DNA of 64,000 nucleotides from an uncultured Candidatus Bathyarchaeia archaeon (lineage in GTDB: Archaea > Thermoproteota > Bathyarchaeia > TCS64): contig CAZAQI010000001.1 in assembly GCA_964487465.1 (NCBI GenBank), positions 1,768 through 65,767 on the forward strand, in the 5' to 3' direction. The notes beneath the pieces were generated by a model that was given only the letters and a program-made list of their open reading frames with translations, did not search any database and was not told the DNA's origin. Positions 10,738-38,424 of this stretch are shown piece after piece (position 1 is the stretch's first letter; each line of letters begins with the position of its first letter). A program made the translations under genes and the position numbers.

Positions 10738-10915
10738 GTCGGCATCAACTATCCATATAGCACACATACAGGGTTTAAATAATTTTGCTGAGGAAACCCT
10801 CGTATGACTAGAGTAAAGTCAGTCTTTTTCACTAAATACATGAAAAACATAATCTAGTTAATACAATAATTACTATTTTTGTTTGTTTAAAAAAAGAAAA
10901 GGTTAGTTATTGTGC

Positions 10916-12223: not shown

Positions 12224-12459
12224 TTATTGCTTCACCTTATGGTTTGTCGCAGAAAGAAATTACTCTCCTTACATTATATAAGGTTTTTACCGGCATTTAT
12301 TTATGTTAACTAAAGATTGAAAGATAAACGGGTTTTAAAGAGAGGAAATTGATAAAAACGGCCAAAAACACATAAAATATCTAAATATAAAAGTATATCT
12401 TGTCTAAAGATGCAAAGTATTATTAGTCCATAAATGCACAACGATGGCGGGTTTACAAC

Positions 12460-26968: not shown

Positions 26969-27571
26969 ATGAATAGACGGGGATTAACGGGCTTGGAGAC
27001 AGCCATTATATTGGTGGCTTTTGTGATTACTTCTTCAGCTTTCGCTTTCGTGATTCTAAACATGGGGGCGTTATCGGCGGAGCAAGCCCAGTCGGTTATA
27101 AGCAGCAGTATGGATGAGTCTAGTGCAGCATTACTGATGGACTCCGAGATTATCGGGACATTCGCTAACACAACAAGTGCCCAGAGCACAATATGTCTCA
27201 CTAAGGCTACTTTCTATCTCAGACTCAGTCAGGGAGGTACCCCCATTGATATGGATGATAACAGGGTGGTTATCACGTATGCTAACCCCAGGTGTCATGG
27301 ATCCATCTATGACTCTAACGGTACTGTGACCACCATTACACCGGTTGCCGGTGATGGAGACTCTATGCTTGAGGCAGGTGAAAAATTCAAGGTGGTAATC
27401 GACTTCACTGAGCTAGCTGGAACCAGCGTGGATCCAGTACAGGGGGATAGGAATAACATCTATACGCATCCATATGAGGAGCTCAGGATTGAGATACAGC
27501 CCAGTGGTGGAGCTAAACTAGCTATAGAGAGAAGCATCCCCATGGTGACTAATACTGTGATGGGTTTCTAA
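26969..27571 (+). CDS. archaeal type IV pilin / archaellin-like protein with class III signal peptide
   Basis: N-terminus MNRRGLTGLETAIILVAFVITSSAFAFVIL is a typical prepilin-peptidase (PibD/FlaK) substrate: basic residues, RGLTG, then a hydrophobic helix. There is no fla operon nearby, so a pilin is more likely than an archaellin. Confidence 0.6.
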   Translation: MNRRGLTGLETAIILVAFVITSSAFAFVILNMGALSAEQAQSVISSSMDESSAALLMDSEIIGTFANTTSAQSTICLTKATFYLRLSQGGTPIDMDDNRVVITYANPRCHGSIYDSNGTVTTITPVAGDGDSMLEAGEKFKVVIDFTELAGTSVDPVQGDRNNIYTHPYEELRIEIQPSGGAKLAIERSIPMVTNTVMGF

Positions 27572-28080
27572 TCTAACCTATCATAGCGGACCCATTTTTC
27601 TTGAGCTAGATCATAGACCCAGACCTGTCTAGGTTTTTTCATAGCTAATTGTTTTAAGGAGAATAGCTTAGCGGCCGCGTCTCTATCCGGGAAGGCGATC
27701 TGTCCAGTGCAGTTATTCACGAGTTCAACGGCTGCGGGGCAGTTCATGTCTACACCGAGAAGTACACCCTCCTCTGGGTCGGGGTCTAGGCTGAAGGGGA
27801 ATTGTCTACATGAAGCGGGTCTGGTGTCGTATATTTTACACATGTTTTCCGCTAGATGGGGGCAGACTGTTTCTGTTAACTGATAAGCAAGTATCGTGAA
27901 GTTTACGCTGTCCGGGTGTTTACCTGAGCCGAGATATGGCTCTATGGCTTCTTCTCTGAAGAGTTCTGTTTCCTCTGGGAGAAGAGTTAAGCCACGGAGT
28001 ACTCCATGGTCTCTGAAGACCAGATCACGGCAACATTTTCCACATTGTTGACAATTGAAACTCATAGATGCATGTATCAT
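27568..28080 (-). CDS. YkgJ/UPF0153 family zinc- or iron-chelating protein (CxxCxxCC)
   Basis: NCQQCGKCC at the N-terminus, plus additional Cys residues (CPHLAENMC, CRQFP). Confidence 0.55.
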   Translation of the reverse strand: MIHASMSFNCQQCGKCCRDLVFRDHGVLRGLTLLPEETELFREEAIEPYLGSGKHPDSVNFTILAYQLTETVCPHLAENMCKIYDTRPASCRQFPFSLDPDPEEGVLLGVDMNCPAAVELVNNCTGQIAFPDRDAAAKLFSLKQLAMKKPRQVWVYDLAQEKWVRYDRLD

Positions 28081-30214: not shown

Positions 30215-30910
30215 TTACTTTTGACAGGCATGAATAAAAGCCTGGAAGAGCTTGTTCATGTCTTCATTGTCCATATGCTCTGGATGCCACTGGACACATA
30301 GCTTCCATGGCTCGGATTCAATCTCCAACACCTCAACTACGTTATCCCCAGCCCACCCTGTTGCAGTGAACCCGGGAGCCGGGTCTTTACAGGCTTGATG
30401 ATGGAAGGTGTTAGTTAGCACCTTATCTTTTCCATATAATCTATGTAGCATTGACCCTTGTTCAAGTCGTACATGATGAGTGCCATACCATGCCTTAGCC
30501 TCCTGACGATGCTTCAACGGATCATCAATCTGGCTTCCAATATCCTGTATCAATGTGCCACCGGCTGCCGCGTTCAGGACCTGTAGTCCTCTACATATCC
30601 CGAACACGGGTTTAGGGCCATCCAAGGCTATCTTGGCTAGTTTGAACTCAAAGTCATCCCTCATGGGCTCGATGCCGCCCTGTTTGGGTAGGGGCTCCTC
30701 CCCATATAGTATAGGGTCCACATCTGGTCCACCTGTGAAAAGCACCCCGTCTACACTTTCGTATAGTTGCTGGTACTCTGCCTCGTATAAGGGCGGTATT
30801 ACTATGGGGGTTCCACCGTTTCTCTGGATAGCCTTGGCGTAGGCATCGGGTAGATTATATCTCTTATTTTCACTGCTAAATCTTGAGGTTATACCGATAA
30901 GCGGCTTCAT
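30215..30910 (-). CDS. class I glutamine amidotransferase-like / gamma-glutamyl-GABA hydrolase (PuuD, peptidase C26) family
   Basis: Catalytic Cys in GICRGLQVLN and downstream His (VQWHPE). Confidence 0.7.
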   Translation of the reverse strand: MKPLIGITSRFSSENKRYNLPDAYAKAIQRNGGTPIVIPPLYEAEYQQLYESVDGVLFTGGPDVDPILYGEEPLPKQGGIEPMRDDFEFKLAKIALDGPKPVFGICRGLQVLNAAAGGTLIQDIGSQIDDPLKHRQEAKAWYGTHHVRLEQGSMLHRLYGKDKVLTNTFHHQACKDPAPGFTATGWAGDNVVEVLEIESEPWKLCVQWHPEHMDNEDMNKLFQAFIHACQK

Positions 30911-30960
30911 AAGTGAGGATATGTATGACGGGATTTAACATTAATGAAGAAAAATGGATG

Positions 30961-31338
30961 CTAGTGATTTATCCTCATATCCTGTATGCACGGGGTAGGC
31001 ATCTCATGTATCCGAACATAAGACTTCAACATGTTTTCAAGAAACTGAATTGGCTCACCAATTGGTCCAAGCCTTTTTCTGTATGCCTCCCCATCGATGG
31101 TTAGAACTAGATTGGTGTTCGCTTCTTCTCCCACATCTAATTTACTGTAAGGGGCATCGAATTGGTTGTTGAAGCATCTTTCATAGTTGCCTCCACCTTG
31201 TATGAACTGTATTCCCTTGTTTGTGCATAAGAGGAATCCTCTCATGAAATCTATCCTACATTCATATGAACCTATGACCTCCTCATCTTCATCGAGTGGT
31301 TTCATTTGCTCTCTTGCAGCTTCGGGTAATTCAACCAT
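30961..31338 (-). CDS. hypothetical protein (125 aa)
   Basis: Clean ORF at the left edge of the AT-rich accessory stretch. Confidence 0.4.
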   Translation of the reverse strand: MVELPEAAREQMKPLDEDEEVIGSYECRIDFMRGFLLCTNKGIQFIQGGGNYERCFNNQFDAPYSKLDVGEEANTNLVLTIDGEAYRKRLGPIGEPIQFLENMLKSYVRIHEMPTPCIQDMRINH

Positions 31339-31551
31339 TTTGTATCATATTATGTAATGGTTTGAATCGTTATTATCAATGATACCTATACCGTATATAT
31401 GATATAGATACACTACTGAAGAAACAGTAAGAAAGCAAAGTATATACAACCAAAGAGCACAAACTCTTTCAACTATGACTAAAATCTAGTTAATGTGATC
31501 ATAGGAGTAACCATTAATGTTTAAGTTAGAGAGATTAAAGAAGGAATAATA

Positions 31552-31872
31552 ATGGTTCAACACCAAGTCAAGATTACAGTTATAAAATGTATAGAGCCTT
31601 CAATGATCTATGAACAGGTTCCCGTTAATACGGAAAATAACGTCCCTCATGTAGCCTGCCCAGTATTCAAAGAGGGGCAAGCTTTCTTTGCGGAGAGTAT
31701 GGGTACACCTCCCGAGGGGTTCTGCCCTAGTGCTTGGCATGATATTCTTGAATATGTTAGGGTCCTGCATCATGGAGGTAGTTTCTATCCATGGCTGGGG
31801 GAGAAGGAGATGATTAGATGCTGCACCGATGGATTAAGACCTGTAGTATTTAAACTAGAACGAATGGACTAG
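31552..31872 (+). CDS. TIGR04076-like small conserved protein (tentative)
   Basis: 106 aa with conserved Cys residues and the pattern ...CPVFKEGQAFF...GFCPSAWHDI...GGSFYPW...CCTDGLRPVVFKLER. This is reminiscent of the TIGR04076 family. Confidence 0.4.
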   Translation: MVQHQVKITVIKCIEPSMIYEQVPVNTENNVPHVACPVFKEGQAFFAESMGTPPEGFCPSAWHDILEYVRVLHHGGSFYPWLGEKEMIRCCTDGLRPVVFKLERMD

Positions 31873-31888
31873 AGAAGAAAGTTAGGGA

Positions 31889-32326
31889 TCAGAATCGGGG
31901 ATTAGTCAATAGATCATCTACTATTTCTTTGCTATAGCTGAGTAAAGACCCTAATGATCTAGCGATCTCTTCTTCCATCTCCTTCGTTAGTTCATCTTGT
32001 TTCATCAGAGTTTTTTTCCGTTCTTTTAACTGTAGGTACTCGTTCAGAGTCTCCTTGGAGTCAGCTAGATGGATAACTATCTTGTTTCTCGTAAACTCCG
32101 GGTTGAAGAGCAGGGTCTCCAAGAAATCGTTATCGGTATGCAAGGTGACTCCGTATTCCTCTGCGACGAGCTTCACATCATCTATTATCGCGTTATATTC
32201 TTCGGTGGTGAGTGGAGGACTAAGCCCTAATCGTTTAACACCGCTTCCCACCACCTCCGCGAAAGCGTAGATCATACCAAGGTTGTAGCTACGTTTATCG
32301 AGTTTATCTAGGTCGAGTTTAGGCAT
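31889..32326 (-). CDS. hypothetical protein (145 aa)
   Basis: Clean ORF; no family recognised. Confidence 0.4.
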   Translation of the reverse strand: MPKLDLDKLDKRSYNLGMIYAFAEVVGSGVKRLGLSPPLTTEEYNAIIDDVKLVAEEYGVTLHTDNDFLETLLFNPEFTRNKIVIHLADSKETLNEYLQLKERKKTLMKQDELTKEMEEEIARSLGSLLSYSKEIVDDLLTNPRF

Positions 32327-32603
32327 GATGAAGGGGATAGTTTCCAGAATTATTATCTTTTCCCCCCGAGGGTACTCATTTCTCGGTTATTAAAGATGGT
32401 ACCATAGGACATGATCAAATAGAGAACAAATAAGGGAATAGGAGTGATTTATTAGATAACTATACAGGTCTGGACCATAGAGAAACTGATATCACCTATT
32501 TTGAGAACATGAAACAAGTTAATTATTCATCTTGAACGATCGTTCCAGAATGTTCTAAGCTGTTCTTCATATAACAACACAACATTATTTCCCTGGATCC
32601 TAT

Positions 32604-32912
32604 TTGAGCTTAGAGTACTATCGACACTTCATTAGGAATTATAGTGATCGCCTCCGTCTTGAAGGTTTCACTGTGTTAAATATATTGGAGAACCCAGAGA
32701 GGATGCCAGTTTTTAACGGGGTTAAGCCGGAGATATTTGCTAGAGATGACAATCTAGAGCGTATTATAGTGGTGAAGGAGAAAAGAGATTACATAAAATC
32801 CAGGGATGCTCTTGAGAAACTCAAAAAATATGCAATATCTAATAAGTACACATCTTTCTGGGGATTTATCGTTAAGGATGATTCATGGAGCCTCGTGGAT
32901 AATATAATCTGA
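32604..32912 (+). CDS. hypothetical protein (102 aa, TTG start)
   Basis: ORF in the AT-rich stretch; the start is uncertain. Confidence 0.3.
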   Translation: MSLEYYRHFIRNYSDRLRLEGFTVLNILENPERMPVFNGVKPEIFARDDNLERIIVVKEKRDYIKSRDALEKLKKYAISNKYTSFWGFIVKDDSWSLVDNII

Positions 32913-32995
32913 TAGGAATAAGAGTCATTAAAATGAGTTTGAGTTATTCTAGCTAAGGTTCTTATCAGGTTACCTCAAAGAAATATTTGTAAATA

Positions 32996-34417
32996 TTGAG
33001 TAAACTAGGGTACGATATAATTGTAGAGACGTCAGAGGAATTCATCAACAGATCTCTAGAAAATATGCAGAAAGAGAAAATTATACCGGATATCATCCAG
33101 GGAAGATACCTGTTAGATGTACCAGAAATATTAAAAGAATACCAGAAACTCGACTATGAGATAACGCTAACAGAGCCATTAAGGGTAGACGCCCTGGCAA
33201 GCAGAAAAATAAAAATATTCTTTAATGCAGGGCTAAAAATCAGCTTTAACATCCTCCAAGTAAAAACCGGTGCCTCCGGAACAATCATGAGCAGACCAAT
33301 ATATAACAGGGCATCAAATCAACTTGAGCTAAAAATAAAGGAAATAAGACTGGACGAGATAAAATTACTTGAGTCGATAGAGTTACCCGGTTTTTTAGTG
33401 AACTCCATTAATGATATAATTCGGGGGGTTATCAAAAAAGGATTGTATGACCTAGATGTTATACCTGTTTCACCTATCGCTGGGAAACTAGACCTACCGG
33501 AGATGCCCCCTGGTAAGGAGAACCTTCTACGCCTTGGATTCAGTAAAGTCGAAGTACTTGATCATAACAAAGTATCAGTCGCATTTGATATTCAATTACC
33601 TGGAAACGGAGTCAAGACAAGTCAGGAAAACATCAACCTGAGAAATGATTTAGCGGTTGCAGTCTCTGATTCAGCAATGAAAAAGGTTCTGGAGTTCTGG
33701 TGGAAGAGGACTACTTACCCCAAAAGACAGGAGTTTACGGGTAGAAACAAGATAGATGATGTTGATGAGTTAATTGATTATTTCTCAAATTACAGTATCG
33801 AGTTGTTCCCTAAACTCTTCACCCTTGGCTTCGTGGAGCTTGACTGGGATCTTATCAATATATGGTTAGACTATTCTGGAGTGATTGAGGTCCGTAAACC
33901 AGCATTAACCATGGGGGAAGATAACATGAGGATTGAAGCCGATTCCATTGTGGACCTATCCGCTGTGCTGCGCATAGAACTGGACACAGCCCTTGAATTT
34001 GATACCAGCGGCCCCATTCCTGATATATTTACTCCATGGGAAGACGACAAGGTGGTAGGCAGAAGGCGACGGATCTTTGATACCTTGAGATATAATACGC
34101 GTCAGAAGCGTATAGAGCTTGTTAATGCGGAGTTAGGTCTTGTTTTGGATGATGAGCAGCATCTATTAGTGGAGATTAAGGACTTTGATCTTGATGTAGG
34201 GCTAAACTGGAGGATGCCCAGACGAGTAATGAAGCGGCTGGAGCGTAGCATCGAGAAAAAGGTGTTGAGGAGTTTTCCTAGAATTCCGTTGACGCCTTCC
34301 ATTATTAGGCATCAGCTGGAAGGGAGTGATCTATTATTTGATCTGGAAATTCAGTCGGTTACCCAGCTAAAGAATTCAATAGTCGTGAACGCTGATATCA
34401 AATATAGCGTTAACTAA
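32996..34417 (+). CDS. hypothetical protein (473 aa), no TM segments; beta-rich repeats
   Basis: Long clean ORF with lower GC than its surroundings, upstream of and co-oriented with the radical SAM gene. TTG start; the true start is uncertain. Confidence 0.5.
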   Translation: MSKLGYDIIVETSEEFINRSLENMQKEKIIPDIIQGRYLLDVPEILKEYQKLDYEITLTEPLRVDALASRKIKIFFNAGLKISFNILQVKTGASGTIMSRPIYNRASNQLELKIKEIRLDEIKLLESIELPGFLVNSINDIIRGVIKKGLYDLDVIPVSPIAGKLDLPEMPPGKENLLRLGFSKVEVLDHNKVSVAFDIQLPGNGVKTSQENINLRNDLAVAVSDSAMKKVLEFWWKRTTYPKRQEFTGRNKIDDVDELIDYFSNYSIELFPKLFTLGFVELDWDLINIWLDYSGVIEVRKPALTMGEDNMRIEADSIVDLSAVLRIELDTALEFDTSGPIPDIFTPWEDDKVVGRRRRIFDTLRYNTRQKRIELVNAELGLVLDDEQHLLVEIKDFDLDVGLNWRMPRRVMKRLERSIEKKVLRSFPRIPLTPSIIRHQLEGSDLLFDLEIQSVTQLKNSIVVNADIKYSVN

Positions 34418-34513
34418 GAGGAAATAGTCTCAATTTAGTTTTCTTGGGAAAATAGCTTATGAAGTGTTTAAAGCAGACCATTTAGACTATGGAGATAATC
34501 TAGGCGAACAATC

Positions 34514-35731
34514 TTGGCGATAAGATCTATCGTAGACCAGTTGGGTAAAAAGATAAAACAGATCGGGAAACCACAGGATAAGCCAAACAGGATACCGTAC
34601 ATGGTGGTCTGGAACTTTACCAATATGTGCAACCTCAACTGCAAGCACTGTTATCAGGATGCGAAAGCATTCGGGACACCGGATGAGTTGACGCTGGAGG
34701 AGAAAATCAATTTCGTTGACACTATGGAGGATGCTGGTGTAAAGGTCCCCATGATTAGTGGTGGTGAACCGTTGATTCATCCTGACTATTTTACGGTGCT
34801 GGATTATATGATATCCAAGGGCATGCACGTAGCTACCGCCACCAACGGCACAATGCTCACCAAGGATTTCGCAGCCAAGCTCAAGGAACACGGGTTAGCT
34901 TATATCGAGATCAGTTTAGACAGCGTAGACCCTGAGAAGCATGATGAGTTCAGGGGAGCCAAAAGCTCTTGGAAGAAGACAGTTAAAGGAATCAAGAACT
35001 GTGTCGAAGCAGGAATATTTACAGCAGTAGCCACAGTTTTCACGAAAGAGACTATCGACGAGGTTGATGCAATGCTGGACTTGGCAGCTGAACTGGGGGC
35101 ACAGAGGTTCATACACTTCAACTTCGTACCAACGGGTAGGGGAAAAGAATACGCGGAGAACGATCTTAGTCCAGAGGAACGTGAGATGGTACTCAGCAAG
35201 CTTTTCAAACGCCGTAGAACAATTGGACTAGAGGTATTGAGCACAGCACCCCAGTACGGTAGAGCTTGTCTAGAGGGAAGCCTCGGTAAGTATCTTGACC
35301 CCGACAGGCTCTATGTGGAGACAAAAGCGCAGAAGAGCGAGCAGTTCTACGTTCAGAGTCCAACACATTATAACACAATGAGCGACAAACACCAAGCAGT
35401 TCCTCTGGAGTCCTTGCAGGGCTGTGGTGCGGGTCGCCAGTTTGTATGTATCCAGCCAAATGGAGACATTAGCCCATGTATGTTCATCAAAAGTTGGATT
35501 GAGGGCAATATCCGTGAAGAACCTTTCTGGGATATCTGGGAGCGCTTCGCTACGTATCCTTGTTTCACTGATCGGGACGCCTTGGAGGATAACTGCGGCT
35601 CATGCCAGTTCAGATACCTCTGCGGTGGATGCAGGGCACGCGCCATTAACTATATCGGTGAGCCTATGGCCGCTGACAGCGGATGTATAAGAAATAAAGA
35701 TAAGTGGCTAAAAGAACAGGACTTAATCTAG
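34514..35731 (+). CDS. radical SAM protein with C-terminal SPASM domain (AhbD/NirJ-like or peptide-maturase-like)
   Basis: Radical SAM cluster motif CNLNCKHC (CX3CX2C). The SPASM region has seven Cys (CGAGRQFVCIQPNGDISPC...CGSCQFRYLCGGC). The alternative ATG start at 34601 (MVVWNFTNMC) is also plausible. Confidence 0.8.
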   Translation: MAIRSIVDQLGKKIKQIGKPQDKPNRIPYMVVWNFTNMCNLNCKHCYQDAKAFGTPDELTLEEKINFVDTMEDAGVKVPMISGGEPLIHPDYFTVLDYMISKGMHVATATNGTMLTKDFAAKLKEHGLAYIEISLDSVDPEKHDEFRGAKSSWKKTVKGIKNCVEAGIFTAVATVFTKETIDEVDAMLDLAAELGAQRFIHFNFVPTGRGKEYAENDLSPEEREMVLSKLFKRRRTIGLEVLSTAPQYGRACLEGSLGKYLDPDRLYVETKAQKSEQFYVQSPTHYNTMSDKHQAVPLESLQGCGAGRQFVCIQPNGDISPCMFIKSWIEGNIREEPFWDIWERFATYPCFTDRDALEDNCGSCQFRYLCGGCRARAINYIGEPMAADSGCIRNKDKWLKEQDLI

Positions 35732-37179
35732 TCTTCTTTATCCAGTATCATCATGGGCATCCGGGCACGGTCTGGTGTGCATACTAGGTCGTGGAGTAGC
35801 TCTGGTGTCTGATCATCCATCAAGCGGCGCATCTCCTCGGCGCATCCACGCACTTCTTCACCGGTCATCCTACGCACATTGGGCTCCAGTACGGGACCGG
35901 TTCTACCACATACTGGGCATTCTTCCAGCAATGTAACCATATCGCCTGTGATTATGGCACCAGGATAGCTGTTAGCCATAGGGTCGATGAAGGCAAAGCG
36001 TCCGGTTTCTCCGTATTCAAGCGGTTGGTTGTTCTCGTCAAGCACCATCGGGTAGACGAGGGTTGGCGGTAGGTGGAGGTAGTGTCCTTCCGGACACTGG
36101 ATGGCGTGCCAGTTACTCTCCACCATAGTGTAAAGGTCTATGTTGTTCTCAGGGGGGATCCCCAATACGCGCTCAGCTTTATCCCTGAACTCTTTCAGGG
36201 GGATCTCCTCTGTGTCGTGAAGCTTCCAGCCCCCACCTGTGATGATGGCGCCTCGTTCACCGAAATCGAAGGTTCTTCCATCTTCCTCCAGTTTATCGAA
36301 GACTCTCTGCATAATGAAGGGGGCTTCTGCTATGAATACTCTGTCTCCGGCTTTATCCCGTTCCTCTAGCCACTTGATTACGTTGCCTGTGATCTTGCGT
36401 GTGGTGCCCAATAGCTGCATGGCCGCAGCCATGACAGCGTCGCTGAGGCCACGTATGTCGCCGTTGCTGATGCGCATGAGCTGGGTTGTGATCTCCCTAT
36501 CTATGGCGTACTGGACATCAGTGTAGACATCATCCATTAATTTGACTACTTTGCCTACCCACATGTTGGTCTTTGAAGGGTTTGGTCCACAGAGGTAAGC
36601 ATAAGCTGACTCATCGTACCAGTATTCCAGCATCTCGCTGATACCCATCTTCCCTAGGGCGTACTGGCTACGCATGTATGTTTTCTGGTCTTTGGGTATG
36701 AAGCTGAATCTTCCACTGGTTCCGCTGCTGTATACTGGGCTCAGTCCCTTTTGACTGAATACGTCTATGAGTTCATCCATACTGGGACTCTTCTTAGTGA
36801 TATCAGGTTTCTCCACCTTGTTTATGCTTATGCTCAGGAGCCAGTTGACGAATTCCTTACCCTCAAGATAGGCCTTGAAGAATCTGTGGCTTATTAGAGG
36901 TACTTTGGGTAGGTCGTCACCTGTTTGTAGCTGGCTTGGTTTGAAATCGAATTCGTTACAGTAAATATGATACCATTTGCTGTTCTCGTACCAGTAGTTG
37001 AATGCATATTTGATCGCTTGTAGTCTCAGCTTATCCGCTTTCTCCATGGGGAGCTGGAATAGTGTTTCCACTCCGTACAGAGCTTCATCAACGGGGGTCC
37101 ATGATTCCCGTGGTGGGACATAGCCGATCTCATGCATCTTCTTCGTTGCCTTACTAACCATACTGGTTGACCACGGCAT
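35728..37179 (-). CDS. LuxE/PaaK-like adenylate-forming enzyme (acyl-protein synthetase family) with C-terminal zinc ribbon
   Basis: P-loop-like SSGTSGRFSFIP is typical of PaaK/LuxE adenylating enzymes. C-terminal CPEGH...CPVCGRTGPV and GCAEE contain cysteines. Confidence 0.6.
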   Translation of the reverse strand: MPWSTSMVSKATKKMHEIGYVPPRESWTPVDEALYGVETLFQLPMEKADKLRLQAIKYAFNYWYENSKWYHIYCNEFDFKPSQLQTGDDLPKVPLISHRFFKAYLEGKEFVNWLLSISINKVEKPDITKKSPSMDELIDVFSQKGLSPVYSSGTSGRFSFIPKDQKTYMRSQYALGKMGISEMLEYWYDESAYAYLCGPNPSKTNMWVGKVVKLMDDVYTDVQYAIDREITTQLMRISNGDIRGLSDAVMAAAMQLLGTTRKITGNVIKWLEERDKAGDRVFIAEAPFIMQRVFDKLEEDGRTFDFGERGAIITGGGWKLHDTEEIPLKEFRDKAERVLGIPPENNIDLYTMVESNWHAIQCPEGHYLHLPPTLVYPMVLDENNQPLEYGETGRFAFIDPMANSYPGAIITGDMVTLLEECPVCGRTGPVLEPNVRRMTGEEVRGCAEEMRRLMDDQTPELLHDLVCTPDRARMPMMILDKED

Positions 37180-37254
37180 AGTAGGAATCCTGTATAAAAA
37201 GGTAAACTGTTTTGACTCGTAACGGCTAAAGGATGCCGTTCCAGACTCAAGGGT

Positions 37255-38231
37255 ATGAAGGTTTTAGTGGTTTACAAGGGGCTCGCGGAGCGTATACAGG
37301 AGCGTTTACCCGATGATATTGAGGTAGTCTACCCGGAGAAAGGTACTGATGAGGAATTGGTCGAGTTAGCGAGAGACGTGGAGGTTATAGTCTCAACACG
37401 GTTATCACCTATTGTAGCGGAGAATGCATCGAAGCTTAAGCTACTCCAGAAGACCGGGGCGGGGGTTGACGATATGCCCTTCGAAGCCTTAAGACCTGAG
37501 ACCTATATGGCTAACACCAGTGGAAGTAACCCGCTGCCATTGGCTGAGGGAGCAGTAGCCCTTCTACTAGCCTTAGCCAAAAGGATAGTGCCAAGGCATA
37601 ATGAGTTTCTAGAGGGGCGAGAGGATAAACGAGGAGTACTGTTTCACGGAATGACAGCGGAATACTTGGTATGGGCTCCATAGGTGTTGAGGTTGCAAAG
37701 ATGCTTAAGAGCCTGGGAATGAAGGTTATCGCTACTAGGAGGAAAAGGGATGAGAAGCTAAGAGATGAGCTAGGTTTGGAGTGGCTTGGTGGCCAAGACG
37801 ACTTGGACCATTTAATGCGTGAATCCGACTTCTTGGTGATCACAATACCATTAACACCAGACACTAAGAGGTTAATTGGTGAAAAAGAGATTAGAGCGAT
37901 GAAAAAGGGCTCGTATATAGTGAACGTGGCTCGGGGAGCAATTATACAAGAGAGACCACTTTACGAGGCCTTGAAAGATGGTCACCTCGCTGGAGCTGCA
38001 TTAGATGTCTGGTGGCAGCCTCACTTTTGGGACCCTCTGTGGAATACTGAGGGTAAGCCGCCTTCAGCGTATCCTTTCTGGGAACTGGATAACGTCATCT
38101 GTACTCCGCATAATATCGTTTTTACTGATCATCAGAGCGATGCATCACTAGAGATCATGGTGGAGAACATTGAACGGGTCCAGGAAGGTAAGACACCTAT
38201 CAACTTGGTGGATAAACAGCTCAGGTATTAA
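37255..38231 (+). pseudogene. D-isomer-specific 2-hydroxyacid dehydrogenase, frameshifted (single-base deletion in a G-run; may be a sequencing artefact)
   Basis: ORF 37255-37683 ends ...RGVLFHGMTAEYLVWAP*. ORF 37671-38231 continues in the +1 frame with GMGSIGVEVAKMLKSLGMKVIA. Inserting one G at 37658-37660 (gcgg|aat) gives LFHGMTAGILGMGSIGVEVAK, a perfect L-x2-G-x-T-x-GIxGxGxIG NAD-binding motif. Downstream the catalytic region is intact (VARGAIIQE...H near the C-terminus). Confidence 0.7.
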
Positions 38232-38346: not shown

Positions 38347-38424
38347 TGGTGGGCCGGGCCGGATTTGAACAGGCGATTACCGCGATGTGAACGCGGTGTC
38401 CTAGCCAGACTAGACCACCGGCCC
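38347..38424 (-). tRNA. tRNA-Val (anticodon CAC), encoded CCA
   Basis: Reverse complement folds as acceptor GGGCCGG/CCGGCCC, D-arm GUCU...GGAC, anticodon stem CCGCG/CGCGG with loop UUCACAU, T-loop UUCAAAU, discriminator A and CCA. One U.C mismatch in the T-stem. Confidence 0.8.

Follow-up and report, generated by a model that had tools for sequence, protein, structure and literature searches.

Do the seven open reading frames (ORFs) between positions 30911 and 37250 of a 64-kb window from an uncultured Bathyarchaeia archaeon form one biosynthetic locus, or do they belong to separate units? Here, the window is the whole stretch of DNA that was analyzed, and coordinates without a locus name refer to it. 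An annotation made from the letters of this DNA alone, in the following called the sequence-only reading, had depicted the span as a horizontally acquired or lineage-specific biosynthetic locus ending in a radical S-adenosylmethionine (rSAM) enzyme with a SPASM domain and an adenylate-forming enzyme resembling LuxE. By comparison with other genomes, the span divides into two independent units, an AT-rich variable slot (30911–34513) and a conserved pair of genes encoding the rSAM/SPASM and the LuxE-like enzyme (34514–37179). Our best explanation, given a probability of roughly 0.45, is that of two independent units with the gene pair acting as an acyl relay from the LuxE-like enzyme to the rSAM enzyme.

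Conservation of the rSAM-LuxE Gene Pair in Bathyarchaeia

Gene neighborhoods were surveyed at 80 loci from species-level GTDB genomes and, in addition, on metagenome contigs. Among the Bathyarchaeia from GTDB, the rSAM gene is positioned convergently downstream of the LuxE-like gene at all eight informative loci, abutting it at seven and being 877 nt away at one. On the metagenome contigs, the rSAM gene was found downstream at 10 of 10 informative loci encoding a LuxE-like protein with the C-terminal tail described below (nine abutting, one at a distance of 2.2 kb). In most close relatives, the pair is flanked by genes for a C26-type amidotransferase and a 2-hydroxyacid dehydrogenase, and it is kept at loci L002 and L006 even though both flanks there are unrelated to those of the window. 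Besides, three traits specific to this clade coincide, namely the tail of the ligase, an rSAM protein without N-terminal extension and a 20-aa insertion in the latter. The pair is a conserved two-gene module, so far seen in Bathyarchaeia only. In the searchable literature, neither this module nor the combination of LuxE-like and transglutaminase-like genes treated below was found described.

In the window, the two genes overlap tail to tail, as had already been noticed from the letters, the overlap being 4 nt long. At two other loci, extra genes are inserted between them (L021:7602-8297, encoding 231 aa; L102:6486-8543, encoding 420 and 230 aa), so this overlap is not obligatory.

Base composition divides the span at the same place. 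The GC content of 30911–34513 is 0.396, lower than that of any other 3.6-kb stretch of the window (0.1 percentile among windows of the same length), whereas the rSAM and LuxE-like genes reach 0.491 (91st percentile), and the value for the entire span, 0.436, is unremarkable (23rd percentile). This break at position 34514 splits the span in two and counts for two units. Hence, the low GC content that had been attributed to the whole span applies to its left part only, and the proposal that the gene pair belongs to an acquired AT-rich locus is contradicted by its GC content of 0.49 and by its conserved core synteny. For the GC content at third codon positions, z-values of +0.85 and +1.48 were obtained with the rSAM and LuxE-like genes, respectively. 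Each of the five slot genes has a GC content between 0.38 and 0.44, compared to a window mean of 0.464 (standard deviation 0.033); their codon usage, however, is not distinct, with log-likelihood z-values from –0.74 to +0.95, i.e., within about one standard deviation of the window genes. The long AT-rich spacers emphasized in the sequence-only reading do exist at 31339–31551 and 32327–32603 (GC content of 0.277 and 0.354) but are not a distinctive trait, as comparable ones are found elsewhere in the window, for example, at 10768–10915 (GC 0.27) and 12224–12459 (GC 0.30).

An rSAM/SPASM Enzyme Close to AhbD, NirJ and Gms

Orthologs of the rSAM protein are 56–98% identical and all of about 405 aa, the few named ones being from Bathyarchaeota. 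Its best-scoring curated families are NirJ2 (264 bits), AhbD (TIGR04545, 244 bits) and TIGR04053 (243 bits), all far below the respective cutoffs of 395–500 bits (500 for both NirJ2 and AhbD), and NirJ1 and NirJ gave 196 versus 650 and 185 versus 515 bits. Core and SPASM domain can be aligned with those of AhbD and NirJ for the greater part of their length; in contrast to these families, the scores of 244–264 bits stand against cutoffs of at least 500, and the AhbD and NirJ2 alignments are broken at about residue 250, where they are split by the 20-aa insertion. The sequence-only reading had conceded that the neighborhood would be coincidental if the protein were a clear AhbD/NirJ ortholog sitting with heme-biosynthesis genes elsewhere; these values argue against such an ortholog. 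Furthermore, when all ORFs of the window were searched with a related rSAM protein (P0036), a second AhbC/D-like rSAM was not found, the query detecting the rSAM protein itself only, and no heme-pathway families are among the annotated genes around the pair (Zip, M24, C26, 2-hydroxyacid dehydrogenase, P-type ATPase, aminotransferase and M19). Given the equivalog scores and the finding of no paralogous rSAM in the 64-kb window, assignment as AhbD/NirJ ortholog was rejected.

The next relatives, at 45–48% identity, are proteins of about 480 aa, some 110 aa of which form an N-terminal extension; they stem from Bathyarchaeia, Nitrososphaerales, Asgard archaea, Methanomethylicia and Conexivisphaera. 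The 20-aa insertion is absent from these relatives, whereas it is present in all five short Bathyarchaeia-type rSAM proteins of the same alignment (A3), two of which are shown beside a LuxE-like gene. One of the longer relatives is directly followed by a gene for a B12-binding rSAM. The closest, P0033, is 50% identical and has no LuxE-like neighbor; its gene is near those for TFIIE and Trm56, like the Gms-like gene of Nitrososphaerales. In a metagenome-assembled genome of the latter (L007:8001-10927; L008:999-3925), a gene for a 479-aa rSAM/SPASM protein with the N-terminal extension overlaps by 4 nt with one for a 496-aa B12-binding rSAM, an arrangement fitting glycerol monoalkyl glycerol tetraether (GMGT) synthase Gms and the methylase Gmm.

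Gms, also covered in PMC11186832, has been characterized as homologous to AhbD; the third criterion defining it is an N-terminal COG4001 domain of some 100 aa that binds lipids, and its gene is frequently found in a cluster with that of the B12-rSAM methylase Gmm (PMC11214058). The 480-aa relatives fit this description. The window protein shares with Gms the AhbD-like rSAM core and the full seven-cysteine SPASM domain for two auxiliary clusters. However, it deviates from Gms in lacking the N-terminal COG4001 domain, in possessing the 20-aa insertion in the bridging region and in having a LuxE-like gene as neighbor instead of one for a B12-binding rSAM. Without the N-terminal domain, it falls outside Gms according to the third criterion of those authors. 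A B12-binding rSAM homolog was not found in the window, nor was a separate ORF resembling the N-terminal extension of Gms, although the same search set-up did recover the rSAM protein. True Gms was rejected due to the missing extension and the lack of a gene for a split-off domain in the window. The most fitting description of the protein is that of a paralogous relative devoid of the N-terminal domain. It is easily mis-annotated as AhbD, NirJ or Gms, but matches the criteria of none of them.

Maturation of a ribosomally synthesized and post-translationally modified peptide (RiPP), another role considered in the sequence-only reading, is not borne out. A RiPP precursor gene was not found, the 96-nt gap upstream of the rSAM gene not containing an open frame, and across the loci, no conserved feature was seen upstream of this gene. 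Pfam gave no RiPP recognition element (RRE)- or PqqD-like N-terminal domain, and the mere 38 residues ahead of the CX3CX2C motif leave little room for a separate recognition domain, albeit some peptide-modifying SPASM enzymes also lack a domain of this type. On these grounds, a RiPP cluster was rejected. Anaerobic sulfatase-maturating enzymes (anSME, 4k36/4k37) reached only about 50 bits with the rSAM family profile, below PqqE, SkfB and CteB, and the protein is not classified as an anSME ortholog.

The LuxE-Like Enzyme and Its C-Terminal Tail

The partner protein, of which about 478 homologs were detected, scores 83.5 bits with PF04443 (gathering score 24.9), and its family profile aligns lengthwise with LuxE (7xc6_E) at an E-value of 1e-27. 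The AlphaFold2 (AF2) model shows a PaaK-type adenylate-forming fold (mean predicted local distance difference test, pLDDT, 85.5; predicted template modeling score, pTM, 0.87). Nevertheless, with 81.8 bits against a cutoff of 550, it is outside the NCBIfam LuxE equivalog. Like LuxE (PDB 7xc6), besides lengthwise homology and the PaaK-type fold, it has no ANL C-terminal subdomain, and it shares the SSGTSG loop, the catalytic Lys/Arg/Cys residues and the location of the acyl-accepting cysteine in a mobile C-terminal segment. In LuxE, Lys238, Arg355 and Cys364 serve adenylation and thioester formation, and it has been proposed that the flexible C-terminal motif bearing Cys364 carries the acyl group over into LuxC by a swinging motion (PMC9157457). 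The counterparts K319, R437 and C446 are invariant in 46 sequences.

Unlike LuxE, the protein is about 110 aa longer and has the additional residues C362/H366/H369, a CPxC motif and a 27-aa tail bearing a cysteine. Furthermore, in contrast to bacterial LuxCDE systems, neither LuxC nor LuxD genes adjoin, the neighbors being the rSAM and 2-hydroxyacid dehydrogenase genes. Within the family, there is no variation at C362, H369, C421 and C424 and hardly any at H366, whereas these cysteines are absent from the aligned LuxE. Judged from this pattern, C362/H366/H369 and C421-P-x-C424 may form a metal site. The CPVCG motif had been taken for an unusual C-terminal zinc ribbon. However, it is kept across the whole family and situated 58 residues upstream of the C-terminus, and it is thus internal and not peculiar to this protein.

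What does distinguish the Bathyarchaeia-type proteins is the tail. With the consensus ...PELLHDLVC[TAY]PD[RM]xRMP..., it is present in 28 of 28 such sequences reaching the C-terminus, while it was not found in sequences of the Thermoplasmatota/Halobacteriota type or any others listed. It is predicted to be disordered in the structural model.

A Transglutaminase-Like Partner in Other Phyla

Outside Bathyarchaeia, the LuxE-like gene has another partner. At 62 of 70 loci, a Transglut_core gene encoding 327–346 aa follows on the same strand at a distance of at most 100 nt (L028–L097; e.g., L009:7001-9397, L012:2627-5100 and L015:7001-9369), and none of these ligases is tailed. These loci belong to Thermoplasmatota, to a handful of Halobacteriota and Methanobacteriota and to a single Anaerolineales genome. 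Conversely, no transglutaminase-like gene is present at the eight informative Bathyarchaeia loci. Two mutually exclusive architectures are thus observed, a tailed ligase with rSAM and a tail-less ligase with a transglutaminase-like protein.

The locus from the Anaerolineales bacterium chromosome (L086, CP070639.1) encodes a 47% identical LuxE-like protein with the transglutaminase-like gene adjoining, and could represent inter-domain transfer or a mis-assigned sequence. At two loci, a gene for a Gms-like rSAM with N-terminal extension is located 0.7–2.3 kb upstream of the LuxE-like/transglutaminase-like operon (L033:2148-3596 and L051:3788-5281). Since this was seen at only 2 of the 70 loci and the N-terminal extension is present, the proximity to the LuxE-like genes of Thermoplasmatota is probably coincidental.

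A Proposed Acyl Relay and Its Alternatives

In the acyl relay that we favor, the LuxE-like enzyme would adenylate a carboxylic acid that is probably hydrophobic, and the acyl group would be loaded as thioester on C446 in the fashion of LuxE. The mobile C-terminal segment, lengthened by the tail, would then expose the acyl group, or alternatively C467, to the rSAM enzyme, by analogy with the delivery from the C-terminus of LuxE into LuxC, and radical chemistry would proceed on the tethered substrate. In such a scheme, protein-borne delivery might compensate for the lost lipid-binding domain of the rSAM enzyme. In Thermoplasmatota, the tail-less ligase appears to hand the acyl group to a transglutaminase-like cysteine enzyme instead. 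As a whole, this mechanism is suggested by the pairing of the genes, the coinciding clade traits, the retention of the LuxE residues, the predicted disorder of the tail and the existence of another partner elsewhere.

Several points weigh against it. It is we who infer the contact between the rSAM and LuxE-like enzymes as well as the nature of the acyl substrate, and the tail could be a substrate of the rSAM enzyme rather than a delivery arm. All cases of tail plus rSAM fall into a single lineage and therefore amount to one evolutionary event, with the loci of the different collections being partly redundant. Within one clade, adjacency could be inherited and not selected, and due to the convergent orientation, the two genes cannot be co-transcribed. 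Moreover, the fit of the 480-aa relatives to Gms was judged from their architecture and one gene neighborhood, with Gms itself represented by its published description.

The alternative that survives best reverses the roles of the two proteins, the ligase being the substrate whose tail is modified by the rSAM/SPASM enzyme, as known from sulfatases and anSME or from QhpC and QhpD. Either a thioether linking C467 to D464, T468 or D470 or a conversion of the cysteine to formylglycine could be envisaged. It would be in keeping with the confinement of the tail to the clade with an rSAM neighbor, with its single invariant cysteine flanked by invariant Asp and Pro and with its predicted disorder, as befits a peptide substrate. 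SPASM relatives acting on peptides or proteins are also detectable (CteB 5wgg, SkfB, PqqE and anSME 4k36). The maturation motif of sulfatases is C/S-x-P/A-x-R, and the C-[TAY]-P-D-[RM] of the tail resembles its C-x-P-x-R form; yet, only 23 of the 28 tails read C-[TAY]-P-D-R, the other five having C-x-P-D-M. In addition, the anSME score is no better than that of unrelated SPASM enzymes, the closest named families by hidden Markov model score (NirJ2 and AhbD) act on small molecules, the nearest relatives are compatible with an enzyme modifying lipids, and a modified tail would have no evident role in a LuxE-type reaction. Overall, modification of the tail appears unlikely.

Alternatively, the two genes could be functionally unrelated and their adjacency just inherited, the rSAM protein being a stand-alone AhbD/NirJ-like enzyme of cofactor or tetrapyrrole metabolism and the ligase functioning alone or with an unlinked partner. 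Compatible with this are the convergent orientation, the one or two genes inserted at L021 and L102, the restriction to a single clade and the fact that most close relatives keep the pair within a larger stretch of synteny that includes the C26 and 2-hydroxyacid dehydrogenase genes. However, mere inheritance does not easily account for the survival of the pair upon replacement of both flanks (L002 and L006), the coincidence of clade-specific features in both proteins and the tight linkage of the ligase to another partner in other phyla, and the AhbD/NirJ equivalog scores are at about half of the cutoffs. Hence, we deem this explanation improbable as well.

Returning to the acyl relay, it can be embedded in a more specific scenario, which is tentative and, taken in full, rather doubtful. 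Accordingly phrased, the rSAM enzyme would be derived from, or sister to, the Gms lineage of lipid cross-linking enzymes, its lipid-binding domain having been swapped for a protein partner. It might act on a thioester substrate carried by the LuxE-type mobile C-terminal arm or on the arm itself, and such an enzyme-tethered radical modification might lead to a lipid, acid or cofactor in Bathyarchaeia, with the LuxE-like/transglutaminase-like acyl transfer of Thermoplasmatota as sister system.

Abundant as they are, Bathyarchaeia and sedimentary Thermoplasmatota have mostly escaped cultivation, and several of their unusual lipid modifications have lately been traced to rSAM enzymes. Both enzymes of the pair belong to known superfamilies. 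Their combination suggests that activated acyl groups or proteins are modified by a route not described so far, in which LuxE-type activation is coupled to an rSAM enzyme resembling Gms, and the LuxE-like/transglutaminase-like operon, found in dozens of species-level genomes, represents a second uncharacterized system. Worth following up are the rSAM-LuxE module and its Thermoplasmatota counterpart, not the AT-rich slot.

The Variable Slot and ORF473

The gene order C26-125-106-145-102-473-rSAM-LuxE-2-hydroxyacid dehydrogenase-ATPase (numbers denoting ORF lengths in aa) is retained at three loci (L003, L016 and L018), where ORF473 is 82–98% identical. Other genomes in which the LuxE-like protein is 83–91% identical still have C26, rSAM, LuxE-like and 2-hydroxyacid dehydrogenase genes in this order, but the content of the slot differs. 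It holds a 125–134-aa protein at L022–L024 and L101, cupin-like as far as can be judged from its sequence, a 67-aa ORF at L100, 342-aa and 64-aa ORFs at L110 and other genes at L021 and L026. At L099, where the LuxE-like protein is 91% identical, an ORF102-like ORF (107 bits) is the only one between 5132 and 5871, and a match to ORF473 was not found in this slot. With such variation among close relatives, 30911–34513 is a hypervariable slot. Lineage-specific accessory DNA, as proposed in the sequence-only reading, is therefore an apt description of the left part, which combines the lowest GC content with presence or absence among relatives. It does not extend to the rSAM and LuxE-like genes, which are kept as core synteny, and the horizontal acquisition also proposed there is not reflected in marks of mobility or a donor.

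Mobility genes were not seen at the slot, significant repeats in direct or inverted orientation were missing from its flanks, its AT-rich spacers gave zero Rfam matches for non-coding RNA, and no tRNA gene is located at its border, the nearest being at 38347, beyond conserved genes. A classical genomic island or mobile element was rejected for these reasons. Likewise, a defense island or prophage remnant was discarded, as PADLOC returned only generic matches of viperin to the rSAM core and PHROGs gave no phage families. A horizontal donor for the slot was not found. We regard it as an ordinary variable slot of lineage-specific accessory DNA, with ORF473 as its one notable gene.

ORF473 was modeled with AF2 from a 13-sequence alignment (pLDDT 79.6, pTM 0.72) as two tandem domains, each of a helix plus a long sheet. 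Foldseek against the PDB placed BPI (1bp1, E-value 6e-12) first, followed by CETP, LBP and botulinum P47/OrfX (2obd, 4m4d and 5wix; E-values up to 2e-5), with a probability of 1.0 and TM-scores of about 0.4. Hence, ORF473 is predicted to be a double-TULIP protein of the BPI/LBP/CETP type, and the modeled fold suggests that it may bind lipids. A signal peptide is not apparent when reading its N-terminal sequence. The predicted two-domain TULIP fold would be the same as in BPI/LBP/CETP, botulinum P47/OrfX and Bdellovibrio TipA (bioRxiv 10.1101/2025.09.09.675085), but ORF473 differs from these proteins in showing no sequence-family match, in its low TM-scores and in its very small family. The latter comprises 14 matches in 5.8e9 proteins and 107 representatives in 1.84e9.

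The three genes ORF102, ORF473 and rSAM are on the plus strand with gaps of 83 and 96 nt, the latter as previously given, and had been interpreted as an operon. However, this arrangement occurs only in the close lineage of the window. A 46% identical ORF473 homolog at L017 is solitary, with no rSAM, LuxE-like or ORF102 gene nearby, and neither ORF473 nor ORF102 is matched at the other rSAM-LuxE loci searched (L019–L027). A role of ORF102 as adapter of the double-TULIP protein, comparable to that of TipB for TipA, was considered and set aside; of the two genes, only an ORF473 homolog is present at L017 and only an ORF102-like ORF at L099. The weakest of the alternatives, namely that all of the 6.3 kb was acquired horizontally as a single biosynthetic locus, including an ORF102-ORF473-rSAM operon for the maturation of a RiPP or cofactor, could draw on the common strand and short gaps of these genes, the retention of their order where ORF473 is highly similar, the lipid-binding fold predicted beside an rSAM protein with relatives resembling an enzyme that modifies lipids, and the ORF102-like ORF directly upstream of rSAM at L099, but it is very improbable in view of the GC break, the solitary homolog and unmatched loci just mentioned, the failure to find a precursor-peptide ORF, mobility genes or flanking repeats, and the little sequence ahead of CX3CX2C.

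Compared with L016, ORF125 to ORF102 and the spacers are 94–98% identical at the nucleotide level within 30700–34600 (spacers alone, 95–98%), and the rSAM and LuxE-like genes are mostly 84–95% identical. ORF473 shows only 86–90% nucleotide and 82% protein identity to its L016 counterpart, with 85 amino-acid changes exceeding 66 synonymous changes. Rapid evolution of this gene or a recent exchange of the left part could account for this.

Gene Layout and Neighboring Genes

Coordinates of all features are compiled in Table 1. The positions, strands and lengths of the seven ORFs turned out exactly as in the sequence-only reading, and its family labels for the rSAM/SPASM and LuxE proteins agree with Pfam (Radical_SAM plus SPASM; PF04443), as does that of the 106-aa protein with TIGR04076. 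Its remark that the slot genes mostly lack a recognizable family also holds, as four of the five, encoding the 125-, 145-, 102- and 473-aa proteins, gave zero family matches in Pfam (including a permissive scan), NCBIfam, PHROGs and PADLOC.

Table 1. Features of the span 30911–37250 and its flanking genes, in window coordinates.
Feature	Position	Strand	Evidence or remark
Radical-SAM/SPASM enzyme, 405 aa, AhbD/NirJ/Gms-like	34514..35731	+	PF04055, PF13186
CX3CX2C radical-SAM cluster motif (C39, C43, C46)	34628..34651	+	Invariant in alignment A3
20-aa insertion (DPDRLYVETKAQKSEQFYVQ), residues 262-281, between rSAM core and SPASM domain	35297..35356	+	Alignment A3
SPASM domain, seven invariant Cys (304, 322, 361, 364, 370, 373, 391)	35423..35686	+	Pfam and alignment A3
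LuxE-family adenylate-forming enzyme, 483 aa	35728..37179	-	PF04443, 83.5 bits
27-aa C-terminal tail (QTPELLHDLVCTPDRARMPMMILDKED)	35731..35811	-	H463, D464, C467, P469, D470 invariant; pLDDT <50
RGCAEE motif, C446 = LuxE acylation site Cys364; R437 = Arg355	35833..35850	-	Alignment; invariant
CPVCG (C421, C424), residues 421-425	35905..35919	-	Possible metal site with C362/H366/H369 (36073-36096)
TGGGWK motif, K319 = LuxE Lys238	36223..36240	-	Alignment; invariant
SSGTSG nucleotide-binding loop, residues 151-156	36712..36729	-	Invariant/near-invariant; aligns to LuxE SSGTSG
C26-type glutamine amidotransferase-like gene, left anchor of slot	30215..30910	-	PF07722, 201.9 bits; conserved in relatives
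ORF125, function not assigned, in slot	30961..31338	-	No family match; 94% identical in L016; absent from cupin-carrying sister genomes
ORF106, TIGR04076 family, in slot	31552..31872	+	82.9 bits, cutoff 33
ORF145, in slot	31889..32326	-	Sub-threshold matches only; 97% identical in L016
ORF102, in slot	32604..32912	+	No family match; ORF102-like ORF (107 bits) in L099
ORF473, predicted double-TULIP protein, in slot	32996..34417	+	AF2 model and Foldseek
2-hydroxyacid dehydrogenase gene, right-hand syntenic neighbor, frameshifted in window	37255..38231	+	Two ORFs, 142 aa and 186 aa

Compared to the intact 321-aa gene of the close relative L003, the 2-hydroxyacid dehydrogenase gene of the window has a 1-nt deletion in a G-run at about 37658, and its splitting is due to an error in sequencing or to recent pseudogenization. 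Further upstream, positions 26969–27571 encode a 200-aa protein with a putative archaeal pilin/archaellin-type N-terminus (MNRRGLTGLETAIILVAFVI...), adjoined on the opposite strand by a gene (27568–28080) for a 170-aa protein that appears to be rich in cysteine.

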